28,672 nt of DNA, taken from a virus. Taxonomy: Duplodnaviria; Caudoviricetes. The stretch is taken from IMG/VR virus record IMGVR_UViG_3300050021_000111, positions 1 through 28,672 of that record; one strand, written 5' to 3'. The notes beneath the pieces are model-generated. The model searched no databases. It was not told the origin of the DNA and saw nothing but the letters and a program-made list of their open reading frames with translations. Below are positions 173-28,672 of the stretch, piece by piece. Made by a program: the position numbers and the translations under genes. Within the stretch, counting starts at the first letter, position 1; each line of letters begins with the position of its first letter.

Positions 173-1321
173 TCAGCGGTCCAAGTAAACGGTCTCGCCA
201 AACGGAGCGGTGTTACGCTCTTCGGTTGAAAGCCATATTACAGGCACGTTGCAATTTTCAGGGAACGGACCTTCGAGGTCCGTAATTATCACGGCACAGA
301 CCGCTGTACCATCATCTTCAATGGCCTTGAGTACCGGCCTAAAATCAGTTCCACTGAACCCTGTCGGCTTCCACGTCAAGGTATCGCCTTTATCAAAGCG
401 GTCAATGCTGGATACTTCGGAATCAAAGTAATAGACGTTTACAGCTAACGGTGATAATTCTTCAATGATAGACTCAAGTGTTCCACGGGCAAAGGAAAGT
501 GACTCCGCCGATACGCTGCCAGATGTGTCTATGCCTATTGCGATCTCTCCGAGTTCCTTTGACTCAAGAGCGGGCAGGTACAATCCTGATGCGACATAGC
601 GGGAGTTTGGCCGCGTCCATGAATAATCTGAATTGCAACGTTCACTAAAAAAACGGAGTAACAGGGACCGTACATCGATCTTAGCCTTGAGAGAATCCTT
701 GACCGTTCTTGCGAGTCCACCGGGCAATTTGCCGCACATCTTAGCGGCGTTTAGTGCCTGCGCCGCTTTTTGTTTCCATTCTTGCTCAGTGGGAGCCGGG
801 TCTCCATCGGCGTCTATATCGCTCGGAGCGTCCCTTACTTCTCCGAGCGGGTCCGGCTTGCTTTGCCCTTGCGCTGGATTATTGCCCTGCCCTTGACCGT
901 TCCCATTGCCGTTAGGTTGCGGCTTGTCATTCTGTTGAACGCGGGCATAATGCCATTCCGCCGATTTTCCCGAAACACTAGGAAACAATGATCCAGCGGG
1001 CAAAGTAAAGCCGGAATCACGTAATTCTGAATTTATGGAATAATCACAGGCGATATTCCAATTTTTAGAATCGCGAGCTTCTCTCCGCCATGGGTGACCC
1101 ATTGCACAATGCATGACTTCATGCGCGACTAGCGCGGTCACGCGGTCATGCGGCAAGGATTCGATAAACGTAGGATTGTAGCCAAGTGACCGCCCGTCAG
1201 TCCATGCGGTCTCACAGCCTGTATCCTCTTTGAACTTCAGGGATAAGGCAAGGGAACCAAAAAAAGGTTGGTCTAAAACTAACGAAACACGGGCGGAAGC
1301 CATTTTTGATTGAGCAGACAT
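173..1321 (-). CDS. DUF2201-type putative metallopeptidase with C-terminal VWA-like domain
   Basis: HExxH motif (AHEVMH), WNIACDYSIN, G/N/Q-rich linker, MIDAS motif IDTSGS, GTDF and ITD motifs; GAGAGGA RBS; ATG overlaps upstream TAA. Confidence 0.85.
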   Translation of the reverse strand: MSAQSKMASARVSLVLDQPFFGSLALSLKFKEDTGCETAWTDGRSLGYNPTFIESLPHDRVTALVAHEVMHCAMGHPWRREARDSKNWNIACDYSINSELRDSGFTLPAGSLFPSVSGKSAEWHYARVQQNDKPQPNGNGNGQGQGNNPAQGQSKPDPLGEVRDAPSDIDADGDPAPTEQEWKQKAAQALNAAKMCGKLPGGLARTVKDSLKAKIDVRSLLLRFFSERCNSDYSWTRPNSRYVASGLYLPALESKELGEIAIGIDTSGSVSAESLSFARGTLESIIEELSPLAVNVYYFDSEVSSIDRFDKGDTLTWKPTGFSGTDFRPVLKAIEDDGTAVCAVIITDLEGPFPENCNVPVIWLSTEERNTAPFGETVYLDR

Positions 1322-1947
1322 TACCGTTTCCTCTCAAATGACAGGGCAATAAACTCGCCATGTTTGGCTATTCTTTCGTGAAGAGTCGATGGAGTAACGC
1401 CTAAACGCTGTGACCATTCTGCAAGCGTTAAATTTTCTCCATTATGGGCAATTCTCCGATTCCTGCGCGTATTGTTTGCCTGTTCTTTCGGAGTTGCCCA
1501 TTTGCAATTTTCCGGCTCATAATTGCCGTTATTGTTGATTCTCTCGATTGACATACCGCGAACCTTTTCGCCCATATCGGCGAGAAAATTCTCAAATTTC
1601 ATCCACCGTTCACAGATGGTAATACCGCGTCCACCGTATATCGGATATTTTTCGCTATTAGGTTCTGTACAGCGGTCAATCATCGTATTCCAAGTGTGAT
1701 AAGTGAGAGTCCGTGAGAGTCCGTGAGTTGTGCGACTTTCGCGCATCCGTGCCGATGTAGAATCACTCTTCAAGCATCCGCATGATTGAGTGTTACCATT
1801 GACAAGATTTTTTCCCGGAAGGATTAAAGTCTTGCCGCAAACGCAGAGGCATTCCCATAAAGTGTTTCCTTTAGATGTACTCCCTGCGCGTTTAACTACT
1901 GTCAGTCTTACAAAATTTTTTCCTGCTAGATCAAGTGGTTTGCTCAT
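1321..1947 (-). CDS. Free-standing phage HNH homing endonuclease (frame open back to 2013)
   Basis: CVCG...SCGC N-terminal motif, THG..TWNTMIDRC, YGGRGITICERW, SIERINNNGNYEPENCKWAT..EQANN nuclease motif, C-terminal TLAEWS HTH; MSKPLDLAGK is a typical family start. Confidence 0.88.
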   Translation of the reverse strand: MSKPLDLAGKNFVRLTVVKRAGSTSKGNTLWECLCVCGKTLILPGKNLVNGNTQSCGCLKSDSTSARMRESRTTHGLSRTLTYHTWNTMIDRCTEPNSEKYPIYGGRGITICERWMKFENFLADMGEKVRGMSIERINNNGNYEPENCKWATPKEQANNTRRNRRIAHNGENLTLAEWSQRLGVTPSTLHERIAKHGEFIALSFERKR

Positions 1948-1953
1948 GAACAC

Positions 1954-1983
1954 AGTATACCGTACAATGTGCGAGTCAAGCAA
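1954..1983 (-). promoter_or_regulatory. Putative sigma-70 promoter giving a leaderless HNH transcript
   Basis: TTGCTT-N18-TATACT, followed after 6 nt by the ATG at 1947. Confidence 0.45.
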
Positions 1984-2051
1984 TAATCCGGTCGTTTTAC
2001 CTTGAGCGGTCATAGAATCCTTCCCATAATGCTTGCGTTCATGCTTGCTAA

Positions 2052-2081
2052 ACTGTATTCGATACGGCTAACGATTGTCAA
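2052..2081 (-). promoter_or_regulatory. Putative sigma-70 promoter
   Basis: TTGACA-N18-TACAGT upstream of the GGAAGGA RBS and ATG at 2013. Confidence 0.45.
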
Positions 2082-2083
2082 AT

Positions 2084-2106
2084 TGCCCGTTATCACGGCA
2101 CGGGCA
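2084..2106 (-). other. Intergenic stem-loop downstream of the DUF3150-like gene
   Basis: TGCCCGT-N9-ACGGGCA perfect 7-bp stem. Confidence 0.5.
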
Positions 2107-2119
2107 GGCCGATAGGAAA

Positions 2120-2995
2120 CTAGAAAATGTTTCCGTAAGTCGCGGTCATGGAATCCAGAATGCTCTGCGCTTGCTTTGCTACATCGGCGCGAACTTCGGG
2201 AACGTCACGGAGTGTCTGAGGTTCCGTGCTGGCGAGTAATTCCGTTTGACGGCGGAGCGCTTCAAGTTGTGGATCTTCGGTGACGTTCAAACGTGTAAGC
2301 ACGTCGCAAAGTTCCCTTGCGTTCCCTATCAATGTATCGCGGAAAATTGCATCAGGAGAAGAGCATTTTTCAACAATCGCCGATACCACTTTCCGCAACC
2401 TATCAACTGCGCCGTCTTTCCCTTGCATTGCCGCTGTGAATGCTTGCTGTACACGTTCTTCGGTGCGGGCGGCAATGGTATCAATCTCACTCTGTGCAAG
2501 CGTAACGCGGAAGTCAATACCTTGCGGTACAGGCGCATATTCCACGGTCCATTCATAGCGGTCACGAATGTTTGTAGGGTAATCGGAATCCTGAAACATT
2601 CCGTTTAGAACCCGCTGTGCCTCAAGCCGATAGGAAGGATACTCTGAAATGAAGTCAGACAGCAAACTGTCTGCCGTATGGAAGCCTTGTCGGATTGTAT
2701 CGGTGTACGCCTGATAATTCTTCACCGGCAGCATTCTCCAACCATCATCTGACCACGGCAAGGTCTGCGCGTAATTCAGTACGCGCAAGTTGGCAATGTG
2801 CGAGACCAGCGCCTTATATGCTGGAGCGTCACCGGGCAGCAGGCACTTGTTATACCTGCCCGCGTCAAGAGTGGTATTGTGCAAAGTCGCGGTCTCTTGA
2901 GACACTTTGCGGTCATACTTGCGGGCAGACCATGCGCTGATACGCAAGCTAACGAGCATTGCGCGAGTGTGAAGATCGGTCATTGTCATTGTCAT
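2120..2995 (-). CDS. DUF3150-like protein
   Basis: MLVSLRISAWSARKYD N-terminus, TLPWSDDGWRMLP, FRDTLIGN and LNVTEDP motifs recalled for this family; AGGAGA RBS (start may be ATG 2989); located between AAA and VWA genes. Confidence 0.65.
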   Translation of the reverse strand: MTMTMTDLHTRAMLVSLRISAWSARKYDRKVSQETATLHNTTLDAGRYNKCLLPGDAPAYKALVSHIANLRVLNYAQTLPWSDDGWRMLPVKNYQAYTDTIRQGFHTADSLLSDFISEYPSYRLEAQRVLNGMFQDSDYPTNIRDRYEWTVEYAPVPQGIDFRVTLAQSEIDTIAARTEERVQQAFTAAMQGKDGAVDRLRKVVSAIVEKCSSPDAIFRDTLIGNARELCDVLTRLNVTEDPQLEALRRQTELLASTEPQTLRDVPEVRADVAKQAQSILDSMTATYGNIF

Positions 2996-3048
2996 ATTCT
3001 CCTGATAATCGGTTATGGTACGTTTACGGCATGGCGGAAGGATAAAAA

Positions 3049-4083
3049 TTACTCTCTGCCGCTTATCAATTGGCCGATGGGACCGGAATTCAAACGAACG
3101 AAAGAATCGGTATATTGAATCTTTTCATCGCGTCTAATCGCGTCACGGACTAGCAATACGGCAAACTCGCCATGATCCGCTTCAGTGTAAAGCCGGGTGG
3201 CGTAGGTTGCGATACGTGCAAAATTGTTATCGTTTGCGCGGGCTGCGAGTCCAACCGATACAGCATACAATTCACTAGGCTTGCTAGGAATAGCGGCAGT
3301 ATCAGGATTCAAGAGAATCGCGTCAAGATTGATAAGGGACCGATACATGGACCTGAAAGACAGGTACTCAAGAGCAGCACCTTCGCCGACCGCTCCCGAA
3401 AATGCAGCCGATTCAATTTCAGCGGGCAAATTCAGCGCTTCGAGTTTGGCAACGTGAGACCACGTGCGCGGAACTGGCGAGTTTGTAAGGTCTGCCGTAG
3501 CCTGAAAATTGCAAAGCAATTCAGGACGAAAGCGCAAAAATGCTATCAGCATAGGCGATACGCTGTGAGCATACGCCCATGTACTCCAATCGTCTATATT
3601 CGCTTCAAGGTCAACGATACAGGCAAAGCGAGATTTTACCGGCTCAAGAATTCCCGATACTCCAGCGCGGTCACTGCGCCTATTTGTTGCGGCCACAAAG
3701 GTTATGCAATCCGGCAGAATGTGACCGTTTACCCTACGCGCAAGGATTAACTGCATAAAGCTAGCTTGTACGGCAGGAGTGGCCTGCCCTAGATCGTCTA
3801 GCAGCCAAACTGTAGGACGAACGGCATTTATTGCCGTTGCCAGTTCACCAAAAGGCAGGAAAGTGGCGGTGTTTCCATCGGCTTTTGGCCATGGTAACCC
3901 TTTAGCATCTGTCGGGTCCGCTACGGCAGGATGTGAGATAAGCAGGTCTGCTCCAGCGCTTGCTGCCGCTTGAGAGATAATGTCAGACTTGCCAACTCCC
4001 GGCGCGCCTGTAATTAGTAACGGCAAGCGGGCAGGAATCATGGCTGCGAGTAACGCGGTCAATTGTTTTGGCGATACGCTCAT
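3049..4083 (-). CDS. MoxR-like AAA+ ATPase
   Basis: Walker A GAPGVGKS, Walker B WLLDD, AATNR sensor, SRF arginine finger, PRTW; AGGAGA RBS. Confidence 0.9.
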   Translation of the reverse strand: MSVSPKQLTALLAAMIPARLPLLITGAPGVGKSDIISQAAASAGADLLISHPAVADPTDAKGLPWPKADGNTATFLPFGELATAINAVRPTVWLLDDLGQATPAVQASFMQLILARRVNGHILPDCITFVAATNRRSDRAGVSGILEPVKSRFACIVDLEANIDDWSTWAYAHSVSPMLIAFLRFRPELLCNFQATADLTNSPVPRTWSHVAKLEALNLPAEIESAAFSGAVGEGAALEYLSFRSMYRSLINLDAILLNPDTAAIPSKPSELYAVSVGLAARANDNNFARIATYATRLYTEADHGEFAVLLVRDAIRRDEKIQYTDSFVRLNSGPIGQLISGRE

Positions 4084-6593: not shown

Positions 6594-6663
6594 GAATTAA
6601 GGCGACCCGAAATTGACGGGTAATCTAGTAGCGGGTAGGAAAAGAATCATCGGGAGAGATAAT

Positions 6664-7344
6664 ATGCACATCATTAAAGAGGATCGCGGATTTCGCGCCC
6701 CTGGAATTTTCGAGGTTTACTGGAATCGGTGGGGTGTCGCATTCGACGTAATCTATACCGGAAACGATGAGGATAAATGGCCGTGGATGCTTCACGTTCA
6801 TTTTCTGTTGCTAAATATCTTTCTGTATTTTCCGCTTCAGTATGTTCCACCGTCTAAGCGTGAGCATTGGATGCGCGAATGGCAGCAGTGGGGTTTTTCG
6901 TCTGGCGACGGTTGCATTCACTTTCACTGGAATGAGGCGACAAAGATTTGGGACTTGCCTTGGTTCTCTAGTGTTTTCCAGCGGCATGAGGTACGGTGTG
7001 CGGACGGGTCGTGGGTTCCTTATGTTGGGTGTTGGGAAGACAAGGAGCCGGATGGACGTGAAGAGTTTTCTTTTCCGTACACGTACAAGTTAAAAAGCGG
7101 TGAGGTCCAGAACCGGACGGCTACGGTTTATGTTGATCGGATGGCATGGAGGCCGAAAGGATTCACTTGGACGGGTTTGTTTGAGAAGGTACGCCAGAGT
7201 ATCAGCGTAGCCTTTGACGATGAGGTAGGGGAGCGTACAGGATCGTGGAAGGGCGGTACGGTGGGCTGTGGGTATGAGATGCTTGCGGGGGAGACTCCAG
7301 AGCAGACGTTACGGCGTATGGAGCGGGAACGGGTATTCGACTAG
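6664..7344 (+). CDS. Hypothetical Trp-rich phage protein
   Basis: GGGAGAG RBS before ATG 6664; ends GERTGSWKGGTVGCGYEMLAGETPEQTLRRME. Confidence 0.75.
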   Translation: MHIIKEDRGFRAPGIFEVYWNRWGVAFDVIYTGNDEDKWPWMLHVHFLLLNIFLYFPLQYVPPSKREHWMREWQQWGFSSGDGCIHFHWNEATKIWDLPWFSSVFQRHEVRCADGSWVPYVGCWEDKEPDGREEFSFPYTYKLKSGEVQNRTATVYVDRMAWRPKGFTWTGLFEKVRQSISVAFDDEVGERTGSWKGGTVGCGYEMLAGETPEQTLRRMERERVFD

Positions 7345-24667: not shown

Positions 24668-24865
24668 ATGGGAGATGAAATGGATACTGAAGATGTGATG
24701 TATGAAATCAAGCAAGTAAGAAACGAAATAGCGAAACTGCGAAAAAACATAGACGATCTTTCGTACAAGTTTTATGGACACTCCCATCTAGAAGACGGGG
24801 AAGTGCATAGGAACTTCAAAAAGGAAGAGGAGTTTCGCAAGCAGGTAATAGAGCTTTTGAGTTGA
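24668..24865 (+). CDS. Small coiled-coil protein
   Basis: AAGGA RBS; heptad pattern IKQVRNEIAKLRKNIDDL. Confidence 0.6.
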   Translation: MGDEMDTEDVMYEIKQVRNEIAKLRKNIDDLSYKFYGHSHLEDGEVHRNFKKEEEFRKQVIELLS

Positions 24866-24908
24866 AACGGGATATACAAAAAAACAGTAGACGTTTGACA
24901 GATTTTAC

Positions 24909-24936
24909 TTGACAGTGCGCACCAGAGGTGTATACT
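24909..24936 (+). promoter_or_regulatory. Sigma-70 promoter of the RAMP/array cassette
   Basis: TTGACA-N16-TATACT, with a second TTGACA at 24895; ATG begins 7 nt after the -10. Confidence 0.7.
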
Positions 24937-24942
24937 TTTAAT

Positions 24943-25095
24943 ATGCCACAGCGATTACAGAAGGTAGTGATCTGGATTTGCAGTAGGTGTGGACACGAAT
25001 GGAGTAGCGTAAATGGCGACAAGCCACTTCGCTGCGCTGAGTGCAAATCACCTTACTGGGACAGACCGCGTAAAACCAAATCCGACACTCGCTAA
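24943..25095 (+). CDS. 50-aa Zn-ribbon protein, probably leaderless (below the track cutoff)
   Basis: MPQRLQKVVIWICSRCGHEWSSVNGDKPLRCAECKSPYWDRPRKTKSDTR; two CxxC pairs. Confidence 0.8.
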   Translation: MPQRLQKVVIWICSRCGHEWSSVNGDKPLRCAECKSPYWDRPRKTKSDTR

Positions 25096-25118
25096 TTCAA
25101 GGCATATTGGAATAACAC

Positions 25119-25769
25119 GTGAAAGCGAAGACGAACAGCAGTGAACAGCAGATGGTTGTTCAAATCAAGCCTCCAAAGTTTCAAATTGGAGTTTTTCACA
25201 TCTATGGCGTAGCCCCTCTAGTCATCAACAAGTTCCCACAAAAAGCATTGGAAGAGATGGAAGCTCGGCAACGCGCTGGCAGTCAAGCAAAGAAGGGCGC
25301 GAAGCGAGAATCCAAGGATTTCGATAGCCTATACGAAGGCGCAAAGCATATCAGCCGCGAAGGATGGTGCGGTCTACCTGCGTCTGCTTTTCGCAATGCG
25401 ATGATCTCGGCTTGCCGCCTTGTAAACTTCAAAATGACACTTGGAAAGCTAAGTGTTTTTATTGAAGCAGATGGTTTTGACCGCGATGAGGGTACACCTC
25501 TTGTTCGTATTGTTGAGGGCGAGCCAAGGCCAGTGAAGATGGCTGTCCGAAACGCAACAGGCGTATGCGACATTCGTATTCGTCCGATGTGGGATGAATG
25601 GAAGGCAGTTCTCCGTATTCGTTTCGACGCTGACATTTTCAGCCTTACCGATGTGACGAATCTCCTTATGCGCGTAGGAGAACAGGTAGGACTATGTGAG
25701 GGTCGTCCTGATTCCAAGTCTTCTGCTGGTATGGGTTGGGGATTGTTTAAGATTGAGGAGGCGAAATAA
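25119..25769 (+). CDS. Cas7/RAMP-like RNA-binding protein
   Basis: N-terminal strand FHIYGVAPL, GLPASAFRNAM (compare the RAMP IPGSSLKG helix), C-terminal Gly-rich loop VGLCEGRP...GMGWGLF. Confidence 0.75.
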   Translation: MKAKTNSSEQQMVVQIKPPKFQIGVFHIYGVAPLVINKFPQKALEEMEARQRAGSQAKKGAKRESKDFDSLYEGAKHISREGWCGLPASAFRNAMISACRLVNFKMTLGKLSVFIEADGFDRDEGTPLVRIVEGEPRPVKMAVRNATGVCDIRIRPMWDEWKAVLRIRFDADIFSLTDVTNLLMRVGEQVGLCEGRPDSKSSAGMGWGLFKIEEAK

Positions 25770-26203
25770 TGGCAACAGAAGCGATTATTTCAGAACTCCG
25801 AACAATCGCTGCGAAGAATGACGGGCTGCTGAAACCAGAAGACGTGGTGGAATCAGCCCGTCCCATAAATTCTCCGCTGCATACTCGGTTCACATGGGAC
25901 GATACAGAAGCGGCAAATCAGTATCGTCTACAACAAGCGAGACAATTGATTCGCACAACAATTCAGTACATCGAAGTGGATGGGAAAGATCAATCATTTC
26001 GTGTATTTTGTAGCCTTACTCCAGATCGTGAAAATGATGGTGGAGGGTACAGAGAAACCGTTGCAGTTCTTTCCAATCGGCAGTACAAGGCACAACTTTT
26101 ATCAGACGCGCAGGAGGATATGCGTCGTTTTGAGGAAAGATATTCACGGTTGAAAGAGTTGTCGTTGGTAATCAAGGAAATTCGTAAAGCTCTGGCTGAG
26201 TAA
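25769..26203 (+). CDS. Small, mostly helical phage protein coupled to the RAMP-like gene
   Basis: LKPEDVVESAR..SPLH..FTWDD..AA..YRL.QARQLI motif; GAGGAGG RBS; TAATG coupling. Confidence 0.8.
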   Translation: MATEAIISELRTIAAKNDGLLKPEDVVESARPINSPLHTRFTWDDTEAANQYRLQQARQLIRTTIQYIEVDGKDQSFRVFCSLTPDRENDGGGYRETVAVLSNRQYKAQLLSDAQEDMRRFEERYSRLKELSLVIKEIRKALAE

Positions 26204-26211
26204 GCGAGAGA

Positions 26212-26501
26212 GTAGGTTCTGGTGCGGCAGGTATGGTTGGAATGGGCGGTTGTGTTGAGTATGGCTGTGTTTGGAATCGCAGGTACGGTCAGGCTCGCAT
26301 TGGAGTGGCGAGGCGGGGAAACGCAGGTAAGGAGTGACGAGGAACGCAAAGGTTTGTCTAGGACATGAACGGCAGGTCGCGTTAGTTTAGGATGGACAGT
26401 TGTGGAACGATGAGGACGGTAGGTTCGGGCACGGTGTAGTAACGCAGGCGTGGCATGGCGGGGCGTCGAGGGGATAGTTTTGGATGGGTCCGTCAATGAG
26501 T
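26212..26501 (+). ncRNA. Array of 5-nt GGN-NN units punctuated by GCAGG; candidate guide-RNA array
   Basis: G(C/T)AGG at 26212, 26227, 26279, 26323, 26372, 26419 and 26444; e.g. GGT AC GGT CA GGC TC GCA TT GGA GT GGC GA GGC GG GGA AA. Confidence 0.8.
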
Positions 26502-26534
26502 GTAAACGAAAGGTGCTAATGATTTAAGACCAAA

Positions 26535-26568
26535 GGGCGGCGGTCTTCGGATCGCCGTTTATTTTTTT
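26535..26568 (+). terminator. Intrinsic terminator closing the cassette
   Basis: GGGCGGCGGTC-TTCG-GATCGCCGTTT stem with cUUCGg loop, then ATTTTTTT. Confidence 0.85.
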
Positions 26569-26569
26569 C

Positions 26570-26598
26570 TTGACATACGAATGTTTTTCCTTTACGAT
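26570..26598 (+). promoter_or_regulatory. Sigma-70 promoter for the portal/structural genes
   Basis: TTGACA-N17-TACGAT. Confidence 0.7.
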
Positions 26599-26651
26599 TC
26601 GTTTAGCCGTATCTAAGGATGCGACACGTACCGGGAGGAAAGCGATGCGGT

Positions 26652-28672
26652 GTGCCTTCTAAACTTGAAACCGTAAGGTGGCAGGTGCCTAACTGGGAGG
26701 CATCTGCGAGTGAAAAGATCGGCTGGATTGAAGAGTGTATTTCAGAAGGTGAGGGTTATCTATCTGGCTCCTCGGCTTATAGGAATCTCAACAGAAATCT
26801 GCGTGTGTTTGATGGAGTTTTTAACGATAAAACAAAAAGTACGCTAGTCACAAATCAGTTAAAATACAACATTCGGAAATTCTGCGAAACCCTTGCGGAA
26901 GTACGTGAAATTGCGGGGTTTAGCTCAGACGTACCTGCCTATAAAGCAATGGCAGAGATGCTTACAAAGGTAAGCAAATGTGTTTATTTAGAGTCAGATT
27001 TTCCCTACCAAATCCTAAAAGTTTTGCAGTACGCAACAGTTTGCGGCATTGGATATTTATGGCCTAAAGTTCGTCCGACAGAGTACGGATTTGGACCAAG
27101 AGAAATGACATTTGATGCGCTAGGGCTATTAGATGTAGTTCCAGTCCAGATACCTGCTTGGTCAAACGATATTCAAGATTGTTATGCTTGCACGGTTTAT
27201 GATTATATGCCCATTGCAGAGGCGAGTGCGAAATTTCCTCTATTCCAAGGCCAACTTCAAACAGTTGGAAGAAATAATTACAAAACTTTAATTCAGGCAC
27301 AGCGGCAGGATTTTGCTGCTACGTTTCGTTATGGAATGGTTGGGGATGTACAGAGCCGGAGTTTTGGAAACCTGTACACAGAGATAAGATACACATTTAT
27401 TAGAGACATACGGATCAACACTACGGGAAAAGAGATGCAGATGGGTGATCCGGGAACGTCCTGGTTCTATAAAGTCCCGTCTATGGGACAGCCTATTTTT
27501 GGAGGGATGAGGGATGGAAAACCATACAGTCGTCCAGCGATGCCTGAAGATTGTAGAATCTACCCTAACCTACGGCTCATCATTACGTCTTCAGGACTGG
27601 ACAGGCCGATGTATGACGGTACTTCCTTCGATTGGGACTCCAAAATACCAGTCATTCAGTATACAGTGGATGATTGGGCATGGGAACCGCTAGGACGGTC
27701 ATTAGTAGGGGATGTCGCGTCAATTGAGAACACGATTAGGAAGCACGAAAGGCTGATGGATCAGGTTCTTACGGCAGGAATGAATCCTCCAATGGGGTAT
27801 GATTTGGATACCAACGGTGGAGCGAAGATTGAGCATTTTGATATTTTTGAACCTGATGTAAGGCTAGGACTTGCAGGTGGAGAGCCGACAAAGACATTCC
27901 AATCGCTGTTACCTGATTCAGTGAGAGTGACACAAATAAATGAAACGTACCTTAAATACTTGGGTGATAAAGAGTTAGCTCAGCTTGGATTGAATGATGT
28001 TGGGAACCTTTCCAACATGAAAATGAATATCGCCAACGACACAGCAGATAAAATGCTGGAATCTATCGGTCCTATCGCTAAGGGAATTGCGATGAGGATA
28101 GAAAAAGCCAATAAGCGCGTAGGAGAGAGGATGAAAACTCTTATTCCTCAATGGTTTGACGCTGCAAGGCTTATTGAATATGTAGGACCGGACAGCATAG
28201 CGAAGGAAATGTTTGACTACAATCCTGACGATATGGTTCCTAGCCATCTGCCAGATGAATTATTAAGTGGTCAATTCCCTACAACGAAGTCGATGTACGA
28301 CCGTCTGACCAGAGCGAAGTTTTTTGCGAACAAACTTCGTCTTGTCACTGTTCCGAATACGCTACTCAGGATCACGGCTATGCAGCGTCAGATGATGATG
28401 CTGCAATTAAAGCGCAGCGGAGCGCCTTTAAGTTGGTCTACTGTGATGAAAACAATCGACATAGCGAACTGGGGAGATTCACCGGGATCGACTGAAAAGG
28501 AAAAATACTTCAACGAGGAAACAGAATTGCAGGTCATGGCGATTATTGCTAAGGCTAAGGCTTTCATGAAGTTGAAGGAAATGGGGATTGATCCGTCTGT
28601 ATTGGAAGGTGGAGAACAGGGTGGTAAGGGCGGTAAAGGAGGCGGCAAAGGACCAGCAGGACAGCACGCGGG
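26652..28672 (+). CDS. Probable portal protein, 3'-truncated by the window
   Basis: Hand translation from GTG 26652 (MPSKLETVRWQVPNWE...) is open to the window end (>670 codons); VTNQLKYNIRK, YATVCGIGY, PLGRSLVGDV and MNPP segments fit P22-like portals; lies downstream of terL. Confidence 0.75.
   Translation, partial: MPSKLETVRWQVPNWEASASEKIGWIEECISEGEGYLSGSSAYRNLNRNLRVFDGVFNDKTKSTLVTNQLKYNIRKFCETLAEVREIAGFSSDVPAYKAMAEMLTKVSKCVYLESDFPYQILKVLQYATVCGIGYLWPKVRPTEYGFGPREMTFDALGLLDVVPVQIPAWSNDIQDCYACTVYDYMPIAEASAKFPLFQGQLQTVGRNNYKTLIQAQRQDFAATFRYGMVGDVQSRSFGNLYTEIRYTFIRDIRINTTGKEMQMGDPGTSWFYKVPSMGQPIFGGMRDGKPYSRPAMPEDCRIYPNLRLIITSSGLDRPMYDGTSFDWDSKIPVIQYTVDDWAWEPLGRSLVGDVASIENTIRKHERLMDQVLTAGMNPPMGYDLDTNGGAKIEHFDIFEPDVRLGLAGGEPTKTFQSLLPDSVRVTQINETYLKYLGDKELAQLGLNDVGNLSNMKMNIANDTADKMLESIGPIAKGIAMRIEKANKRVGERMKTLIPQWFDAARLIEYVGPDSIAKEMFDYNPDDMVPSHLPDELLSGQFPTTKSMYDRLTRAKFFANKLRLVTVPNTLLRITAMQRQMMMLQLKRSGAPLSWSTVMKTIDIANWGDSPGSTEKEKYFNEETELQVMAIIAKAKAFMKLKEMGIDPSVLEGGEQGGKGGKGGGKGPAGQHA

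Follow-up and report, generated by a model that had tools for sequence, protein, structure and literature searches.

The window, by which we mean the whole 28,672-nt stretch of DNA that was analysed (IMG/VR record IMGVR_UViG_3300050021_000111, Caudoviricetes), is a phage fragment in which terminase and portal-like genes are present. The runs containing its sequence are labelled as peat, permafrost or bioreactor metagenomes, and 14 of 20 carry a mark as possible source. Near its right end, two genes, vipr and vap, are followed by a G-rich tract of five-nucleotide repeats and by a portal-like gene (Table 1).

Table 1. Features of the cassette, the repeat array and the portal region in the window
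Feature	Position	Strand	Description
Sigma-70-type promoter-like site	24909..24936	+	TTGACA-16-TATACT, 11/12; upstream of the cassette
vipr	25119..25769	+	Stand-alone RAMP protein, 216 aa; from profile, hhalign and fold
vap (accessory gene)	25769..26203	+	144 aa; relative in 78/80 vipr loci; phrog_15946, unknown function
Leader	26204..26229	+	Ends in the first GCA|GG; motif GTTCNGGYRC at the equivalent place in relatives L005-L009
Guide 1	26230..26281	+	52 nt, 10 repeats, two bases short, ambiguous parse; identical unit in L008
Guide 2	26282..26325	+	44 nt, 8 repeats in register; from array sequence
Guide 3	26326..26374	+	49 nt, 9 repeats in register; NN kept in L008 (0 differences)
Guide 4	26375..26421	+	47 nt, 9 repeats (two of 4 nt); spells RYYI(H/Q)VT(E/D)T of a tyrosine integrase; ends GGTA|GG
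Leader-like stub	26422..26446	+	25 nt, 4 repeats, precedes the last guide; repeat family D9; similar stub in L007 and L008
Guide 5	26447..26506	+	11-12 repeats in register; spells VMG(V)GYLWPKV, portal gene of sister phages
Terminator-like hairpin	26535..26570	+	Intrinsic type, hairpin and T run; from sequence
Own counterpart of the guide 5 target	27039..27070	+	19/22; inside portal-like ORF 26619-28672 (portal phrog_156, E 1.3e-4)

The vipr cassette

The protein encoded by vipr was recognized through its family. A single-sequence search of solved structures with the 216-aa protein gave nothing, and the match came by profile only: the family profile, built from 50 of the 80 relative loci with the window's own protein as first row, found SUSP1 Vipr in the PDB (36pp_D, E 3.5e-5), and hhalign aligned the family with SUSP1 Vipr over 170 columns at 21% identity (probability 90.5). 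For the structure model (pLDDT 85.9) the first structure matches are Csm3/Cmr RAMPs (Foldseek E 7.5e-5), the best of these alignments having Z 10.7 and rmsd 4.0 over 148 aligned residues. The protein is a stand-alone RAMP, with RRM core, thumb and G-loop, homologous to Vipr. SUSP1 residues R138 and R179 correspond to R155 (49/50 relatives) and R196 (50/50), D177 corresponds to E194 in the window and to Glu or Ala in the family, and W178 is replaced by Gly. Among the relatives annotated as hypothetical are proteins of Cyanophage Cy-LDV1 (56%) and of phages of Mycobacterium and Gordonia (28-33%).

For vap, no family was found in Pfam, the Atlas clusters are unnamed, and there is no similarity to the SUSP1 gene adjoining vipr; its single-sequence model has pLDDT 69.7 and pTM 0.44. 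Both genes are intact, and together they form a minimal phage-borne locus of vipr plus one vap, as is found for VIPR. Neither a CRISPR repeat-spacer array nor any further cas gene, which would mark CRISPR-Cas, is present in the window. Promoter-like sites number two against 2.4 expected in shuffles, a count which is not significant by itself. A small zinc-ribbon-like ORF (24928-25095, +), with weak Pfam matches below cut-off, lies between the promoter and vipr, and it may be a third operon gene. The assembled contigs of four RNA runs cover parts of vipr, vap and portal and nothing of 26197-26679; their ends vary between runs and DNA carry-over is possible.

Layout of the array

The earlier note, made from the sequence alone, had described the tract as GCAGG-delimited units of unequal length, some with register slips. 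Recomputation found all six boundaries in place, with GG starts at 26230, 26282, 26326, 26375, 26422 and 26447 and spacings of 52, 44, 49, 47 and 25 nt. The autocorrelation of G, which the note had proposed as a check, is 0.33 at lag 5 and 0.32 at lag 10, the lag-5 value being found in 0/5000 base shuffles, and the array stretch is the highest-ranking 290-nt segment of the window for 5-nt G periodicity. GCAGG occurs five times in these 290 nt against 0.48 expected from plus-strand density; it is also in excess across the whole window (70 vs 43.5 expected). The units at 26282, 26326 and 26447 do keep an exact 5-nt register. The other three are slipped as claimed, those at 26230 and 26375 being each 2 nt shorter than 5n-1 and that at 26422, with 25 nt, having one base extra. 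The note had also remarked that there is no long invariant repeat; Tandem Repeats Finder (13 rows for the window) gives none within the array. An Rfam search of 24700-26800 returned no match, and no stable RNA fold of the array was found (z -0.9).

Could such a tract be simply low-complexity G-rich sequence, or the reverse side of an antisense ORF at 25990-26496? A 168-aa minus-strand ORF does overlap the array. However, the period is 5 and not 3, units of 44, 47, 49 and 52 nt are swapped among relatives, and the NN code yields convergent targets in codon phase, for which shuffled controls speak against chance; a non-guide origin is very improbable indeed. We assign the tract 26212..26501 to VIPR, as a phage-encoded vrRNA array of the 'staggered' kind. 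It is a GGY/NN pentamer tract with variable NN adjacent to the cassette, as in VIPR, and each guide has 8-12 full repeats plus a terminal 4-mer (the stub has 4), in agreement with the 9-16 per vrRNA of VIPR.

How many guides are there? The note counted about six; we count five guides plus one 25-nt stub, because the unit at 26422 has only four repeats and is leader-like. The window has just two copies of the leader motif. Copies of it before the last guide were seen in three arrays (window 26422-26446, L007:1228 and L008:4427), and the final two repeats of many inner units look like the leader end. The leader-like repeats at unit ends and the stub are possibly a trace of the route by which units were added.

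Units and boundaries among relatives

A 5-periodic G tract lies beside 77/80 of the relatives' vipr loci, a count which includes redundant records and uses a threshold uncalibrated on unrelated DNA. In 57 related loci, 369 distinct GCAGG-delimited units were collected; 287 have a length of 5n-1 nt, 30 are one shorter, 6 are two shorter, 43 have 5n nt and 3 have 5n+1. The 5n-1 length equals the 1-nt overlap of successive vrRNAs in the published staggered layout, an agreement in sequence layout only.

Is variation confined to the NN positions, a question that the note had proposed to check on close relatives? Across different units this holds: over 2036 internal repeats of the 287 units, positions 1-5 carry 1.27, 1.06, 0.43, 0.03 and 0.02 bits of information. 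It fails between orthologous units, where the scaffold changes and NN is kept. Orthologues of guides 3 and 5 show 15 scaffold differences, three of them deletions, vs 2 in NN (the L007 units were parsed by eye in this comparison), and guide 3 in L007 has 1 NN difference, 9 scaffold differences and two 4-nt repeats. In L008, guides 1 and 4 have exactly the same sequence as in the window. These comparisons suggest selection on NN.

Among the closest arrays, those of L005-L008 (85-97% Vipr identity), entire units are gained, lost and exchanged at GCA|GG. For example, L008 has guides 1, 3 and 4 and the stub in common with the window, together with three inner units that the window lacks and a last guide of its own. 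Target matches begin at the first repeat past a GCA|GG boundary, and for this reason GCA|GG is a functional module boundary. The proposal of separate guides bounded by GCA|GG thus finds indirect support in the 5n-1 lengths, the unit swaps and the starts of target matches. The degenerate boundary ACGGTA|GG was vindicated by guide 4, whose integrase match ends at 26417, just before it; the same match end rules out the parse of 26375-26446 as a single 72-nt unit with ACGGTAGG as a non-boundary.

Guide 4 and the integrase of a tRNA-Glu element

Guides were read by the VIPR rule, with NN pairs joined by one wildcard base; in the search pattern of guide 4 both 4-nt repeats keep their last two bases. 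This pattern has 119 exact (18/18) matches in metagenome contigs, and 118 of the 119 fall in one integrase family, in codon phase, at RYYIHVTET. The 118 represent 52 distinct sequences in which all nine skipped positions vary. The 18/18 score is built into the search, and the weight lies in the convergence on one gene and in a second guide: in L008 a separate guide reads the N-terminal part of this integrase, with 16/16 over eight repeats and 18 exact sites in 48 loci. The targeted integrase belongs to PF00589, and its catalytic tyrosine presumably lies within the RYYI(H/Q)VT(E/D)T motif.

Among the 48 genome loci of this integrase, 46 are titled Acidobacteria, often Terracidiphilus, and the guide 4 site is exact in 26 and at 17/18 in 13. 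An even draw of 200 family genomes gave 4 with a site at <=1 mismatch, besides the centre, and the reversed control gave 0. Viral contigs had no exact match to guide 4. A tRNA-Glu is found within about 7 kb of the integrase in 17/20 genome loci scanned, and an HTH_17 gene and a few ORFs accompany it. The integrase belongs to a small tRNA-Glu element of Acidobacteriaceae, which, judged by size and gene content alone, is probably a satellite. The guide targets point to Acidobacteriaceae as the likely host of the phage as well. Two units of L007 match other genes near tRNA-Glu elements (19/20 and 18/18). At two sites near integrase loci, L376:3851 and L356:2775, L007 unit 1 (18/18, nine repeats) and L008 unit 4 (20/24) were seen to lie antisense to like peptides (LNDLW).

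Guide 5, the portal gene and the last guides

The best match of guide 5 in 1.15 Mb of kin DNA is 21/22, or 22/24, against 16-18 in shuffled-order controls; for 22/24 the controls reached 17-18 across 20 shuffled orders. Over 24 bases, a skip of one base gives 22, a skip of none 19 and a skip of two 18, and the skip 0 and skip 2 readings were never clearly above controls. When 11 repeats were compared with 65 kin loci, 36 scored 20-21 and the phage's own gene scored 19; none of the 65 was a perfect match, the best being 21/22. Exact viral matches of guide 5 (2/3) were set aside as out of frame and chance-like. Neither vipr nor vap was found in the fetched flanks of the 65 kin portal loci, from mostly incomplete records, or in 40 further stretches of 16 of these records. 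Record 13 of RNA run X16, a run which also contains this phage's sequence, aligns to window 26988-27148 and is a sister-phage portal of the VMGIGYLWP kind, that is, of the guide 5 target class.

Do other last guides behave in the same way? Thirty units of five arrays were compared, and four last guides, belonging to the window and to L005, L007 and L008, fit kin better than self (21 v 19, 22 v 17, 21 v 18 and 18 v 15). The target is the portal gene for the window, L005 and L007, and another clade gene for L008; for the last guide of L006 no match was found. Taken together, 2/5 window guides have decoded targets in rival mobile elements with the skip at the wobble position, as known for VIPR.

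Guides 1-3 showed no convergent target in the viral, kin or Acidobacteriaceae sequences searched, one-point excesses over 4-10 shuffles being disregarded. Exact viral matches of guide 1 numbered 2 under one parse and 4 under another, all in unrelated contigs; its best match, 19/20, is antisense to a head-tail gene of the 42-kb phage L223, on whose contig guide 3 has no site when 3 mismatches are allowed; 10 matches at 18/20 in 401 Acidobacteriaceae genomes (reversed control 0) lie in ten unrelated places; and an antisense 11/12 to the portal C-terminus is inside the control range. Guide 2 had 26 matches at <=1 mismatch vs about 23 in the control. The 12 viral matches of guide 3 are all of 27-37% GC and unrelated to the clade, its matches among kin records were 0/31, and the 401 genomes gave 18 vs about 31 control matches.

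Shortened repeats

What then are the slips? The earlier note took slipped units to be decayed or to encode bulges. Bulges are contradicted by the targets, in which none is seen and along which the match stays in codon phase through the 4-nt repeats; none is needed, because the NN-kept reading matches throughout and orthologues retain NN. The slips are better described, from the sequence matches, as 4-nt repeats in which one scaffold base was lost and NN was kept. Six guides with a 4-nt repeat score 18/18, 22/22, 21/22, 16/16, 19/20 and 18/20 when NN is kept, against 6, 14, 17, 10, 7 and 12, respectively, in strict 5-nt register. The parses were chosen among 3-4 per unit, and those of the L005 and L007 last guides are not always the top-scoring ones. 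Shortened units make up 13/24 in the window's clade vs 23/345 elsewhere.

Decay is probably not the explanation either, as six guides match their targets across slips. In its strongest form, it would mean that 4-nt repeats are lesions in a VIPR array: the guide was perfect when acquired, it now works poorly or only as far as the slip, and the match is a relic. The known structure lends this some weight, as cryo-EM of SUSP1 shows G1, G2 and Y3 each in a pocket (accessible text of 10.64898/2026.04.26.720927) and GGY substitutions abolished SUSP1 silencing (10.64898/2026.04.26.720920). The high share of slipped units in this clade could also mark a decaying lineage, and slips that removed an N escape the target test, because targets across slips are found only when NN is kept. 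However, the matches are complete on both sides of the slips, and 15/16 NN bases of eight 4-nt repeats match the target. Guide 4 is identical in L008 though the rest of the array differs, orthologous units have far more scaffold than NN changes, and vipr and vap are intact. We consider the lesion explanation unlikely, and working 4-nt repeats remain the preferred reading.

A target match despite a missing scaffold letter is not foreseen by the published five-letter rule. There is no mention of 4-nt repeats or GCAGG in 10.64898/2026.04.26.720920 (text, and supplement by term search), and the words 'slip', 'bulge' and 'staggered' are absent from the accessible passages of 10.64898/2026.04.26.720927. 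According to their accessible parts, the caller of 10.64898/2026.10.15.759431 models strict 5-nt units, and 10.64898/2026.10.21.760802 treats non-canonical trinucleotides and models units as 5 nt. Thus no description of the shortened-repeat feature was found in the accessible text of the VIPR preprints; figures and supplementary data may have it.

Proposed mechanism

As described in the accessible parts of 10.64898/2026.04.26.720920, 10.64898/2026.04.26.720927 and 10.64898/2026.10.15.759431, VIPR of SUSP1 uses one Vipr subunit per repeat, a triplex R-loop and transcriptional silencing, and its code is two bases paired and one skipped (10.64898/2026.04.26.720920). The following scenario may be given for the window. 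A single transcript, starting at the promoter near 24909 and ending at the terminator, would cover vipr, vap and the array. The array would be divided at GCA|GG into five guides, with Vipr itself as the first candidate for the cutting enzyme. Each repeat would be bound by one Vipr subunit, which hides the scaffold bases and exposes the NN pair, and the DNA target would be read in steps of two paired bases and one skipped base, the latter at codon position 3, as suggested here by sequence match only. A repeat may lose one scaffold base and, at least in this clade, still deliver NN; in that case the target register would be set by the subunit count and not by a fixed 5-nt step. Binding would block transcription, as in SUSP1. 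Guide 4 would then silence the integrase of the host tRNA-Glu element, probably a satellite, and stop its excision, and guide 5 would silence the portal gene of sister phages, the phage's own copy having presumably drifted at three read bases. As a whole, the explanation that the array encodes phage VIPR guide RNAs, with integrase and portal silencing and working 4-nt repeats, is held with good confidence.

Is the array really cut? It may instead act as a whole transcript in which GCA|GG only ends one Vipr filament and starts the next. This possibility is in keeping with a cassette without a separate nuclease gene and an array without a stable fold, and one functional boundary is GGTA|GG rather than GCAGG. 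Moreover, sequencing confirms the ribozyme and single-vrRNA layouts and none is stated for staggered arrays (10.64898/2026.04.26.720920). On the other hand, staggered arrays are drawn as individually processed vrRNAs (fig. S18 legend, 10.64898/2026.04.26.720920), and the GCA at the unit ends does not vary, unlike the internal 4-nt repeats, as expected of a cut site that is recognized by sequence. An uncut array seems rather doubtful to us.

A wider reading, which we put forward only tentatively, is that Vipr reads 4-nt and 5-nt repeats alike and is itself the enzyme that cuts the array at GCA|GG, and that the arrays are divided by role, inner guides acting against integrating elements and the last guide against sister phages. 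In the same tentative reading the inner guides would be exchangeable, and the last guide, separately led, would use a conserved virion gene to distinguish self from sister phages.

Relation to known systems

The system is a known one, VIPR, and the window holds a new clade member with decoded targets and the shortened-repeat feature. Published staggered vrRNA arrays have a 1-nt overlap and 'internal degeneracy' (10.64898/2026.04.26.720920, fig. S18 legend). Like the staggered VIPR of 10.64898/2026.04.26.720920, the window has vipr, one accessory gene and an array in a phage, GGY/NN repeats, units of 5n-1 nt, a one-base skip at codon position 3 and rival mobile elements as targets. It departs from staggered VIPR in its frequent NN-keeping 4-nt repeats, in the leader-like stub before a kin-directed last guide, in having no structured 3' tail between units and in the frequent A at scaffold position 3.

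With type II VIPR of SUSP1, as far as the accessible text goes, it shares a homologous protein and a guide against the recombinase of a small integrated element: vrRNA4 of SUSP1 is directed at the F5 satellite recombinase, and a recombinase-directed guide blocks satellite excision (accessible parts of 10.64898/2026.10.15.759431). The differences are considerable. The window's Vipr is only 21% identical, with Gly for W178, and the accessory gene is dissimilar. SUSP1 vrRNAs, in the accessible descriptions, are separate RNAs of ~100 nt with a pseudoknot tail, whereas the window units abut with a 4-nt end; the conserved structured 3' tail per tract of type II VIPR (SUSP1, P. fulva) is not seen here. 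The host is E. coli for SUSP1 and, as the targets suggest, Acidobacteriaceae for the window phage. With the Cas7-group RAMPs of class 1 CRISPR (Csm3, Cmr) Vipr has the same fold, but class 1 CRISPR differs in having repeat-spacer arrays and other cas genes, and the code of the window is non-contiguous.

VIPR was described in 2026, and tests so far, in the accessible literature, were mainly on one type. The window supplies named natural targets for the staggered-array layout, on which no experiment was found in the accessible texts. Should the 4-nt repeats prove functional, the structural rule that each subunit hides three bases would be less strict than published, guides could be designed with more freedom, and strict 5-nt callers would misread about half of the clade's guides (13/24 units) and miss their targets. 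Last guides that are directed at kin and match self less well point to a simple rule by which sister phages of peat Acidobacteria tell self from non-self.

A few other loci were noticed. The complete 143-kb record G003 has GGY-NN tracts apart from its vipr cassette (L088:13260, L089:5580, L089:11321, L090:8187 and L090:9051), which are dispersed vrRNAs besides its eight-unit array. A GGY-NN tract at L208:19376 (record G022), in a phage of the portal clade whose analysed parts showed no vipr, is a possible solo vrRNA. Elsewhere in the window, an Acb3-like anti-CBASS gene lies at 6613-7344 (+; PF25187, E 1e-51), and a DUF2201 metallopeptidase-vWA gene and an AAA_5 ATPase gene form one leftward cluster at 173-4083 (-).
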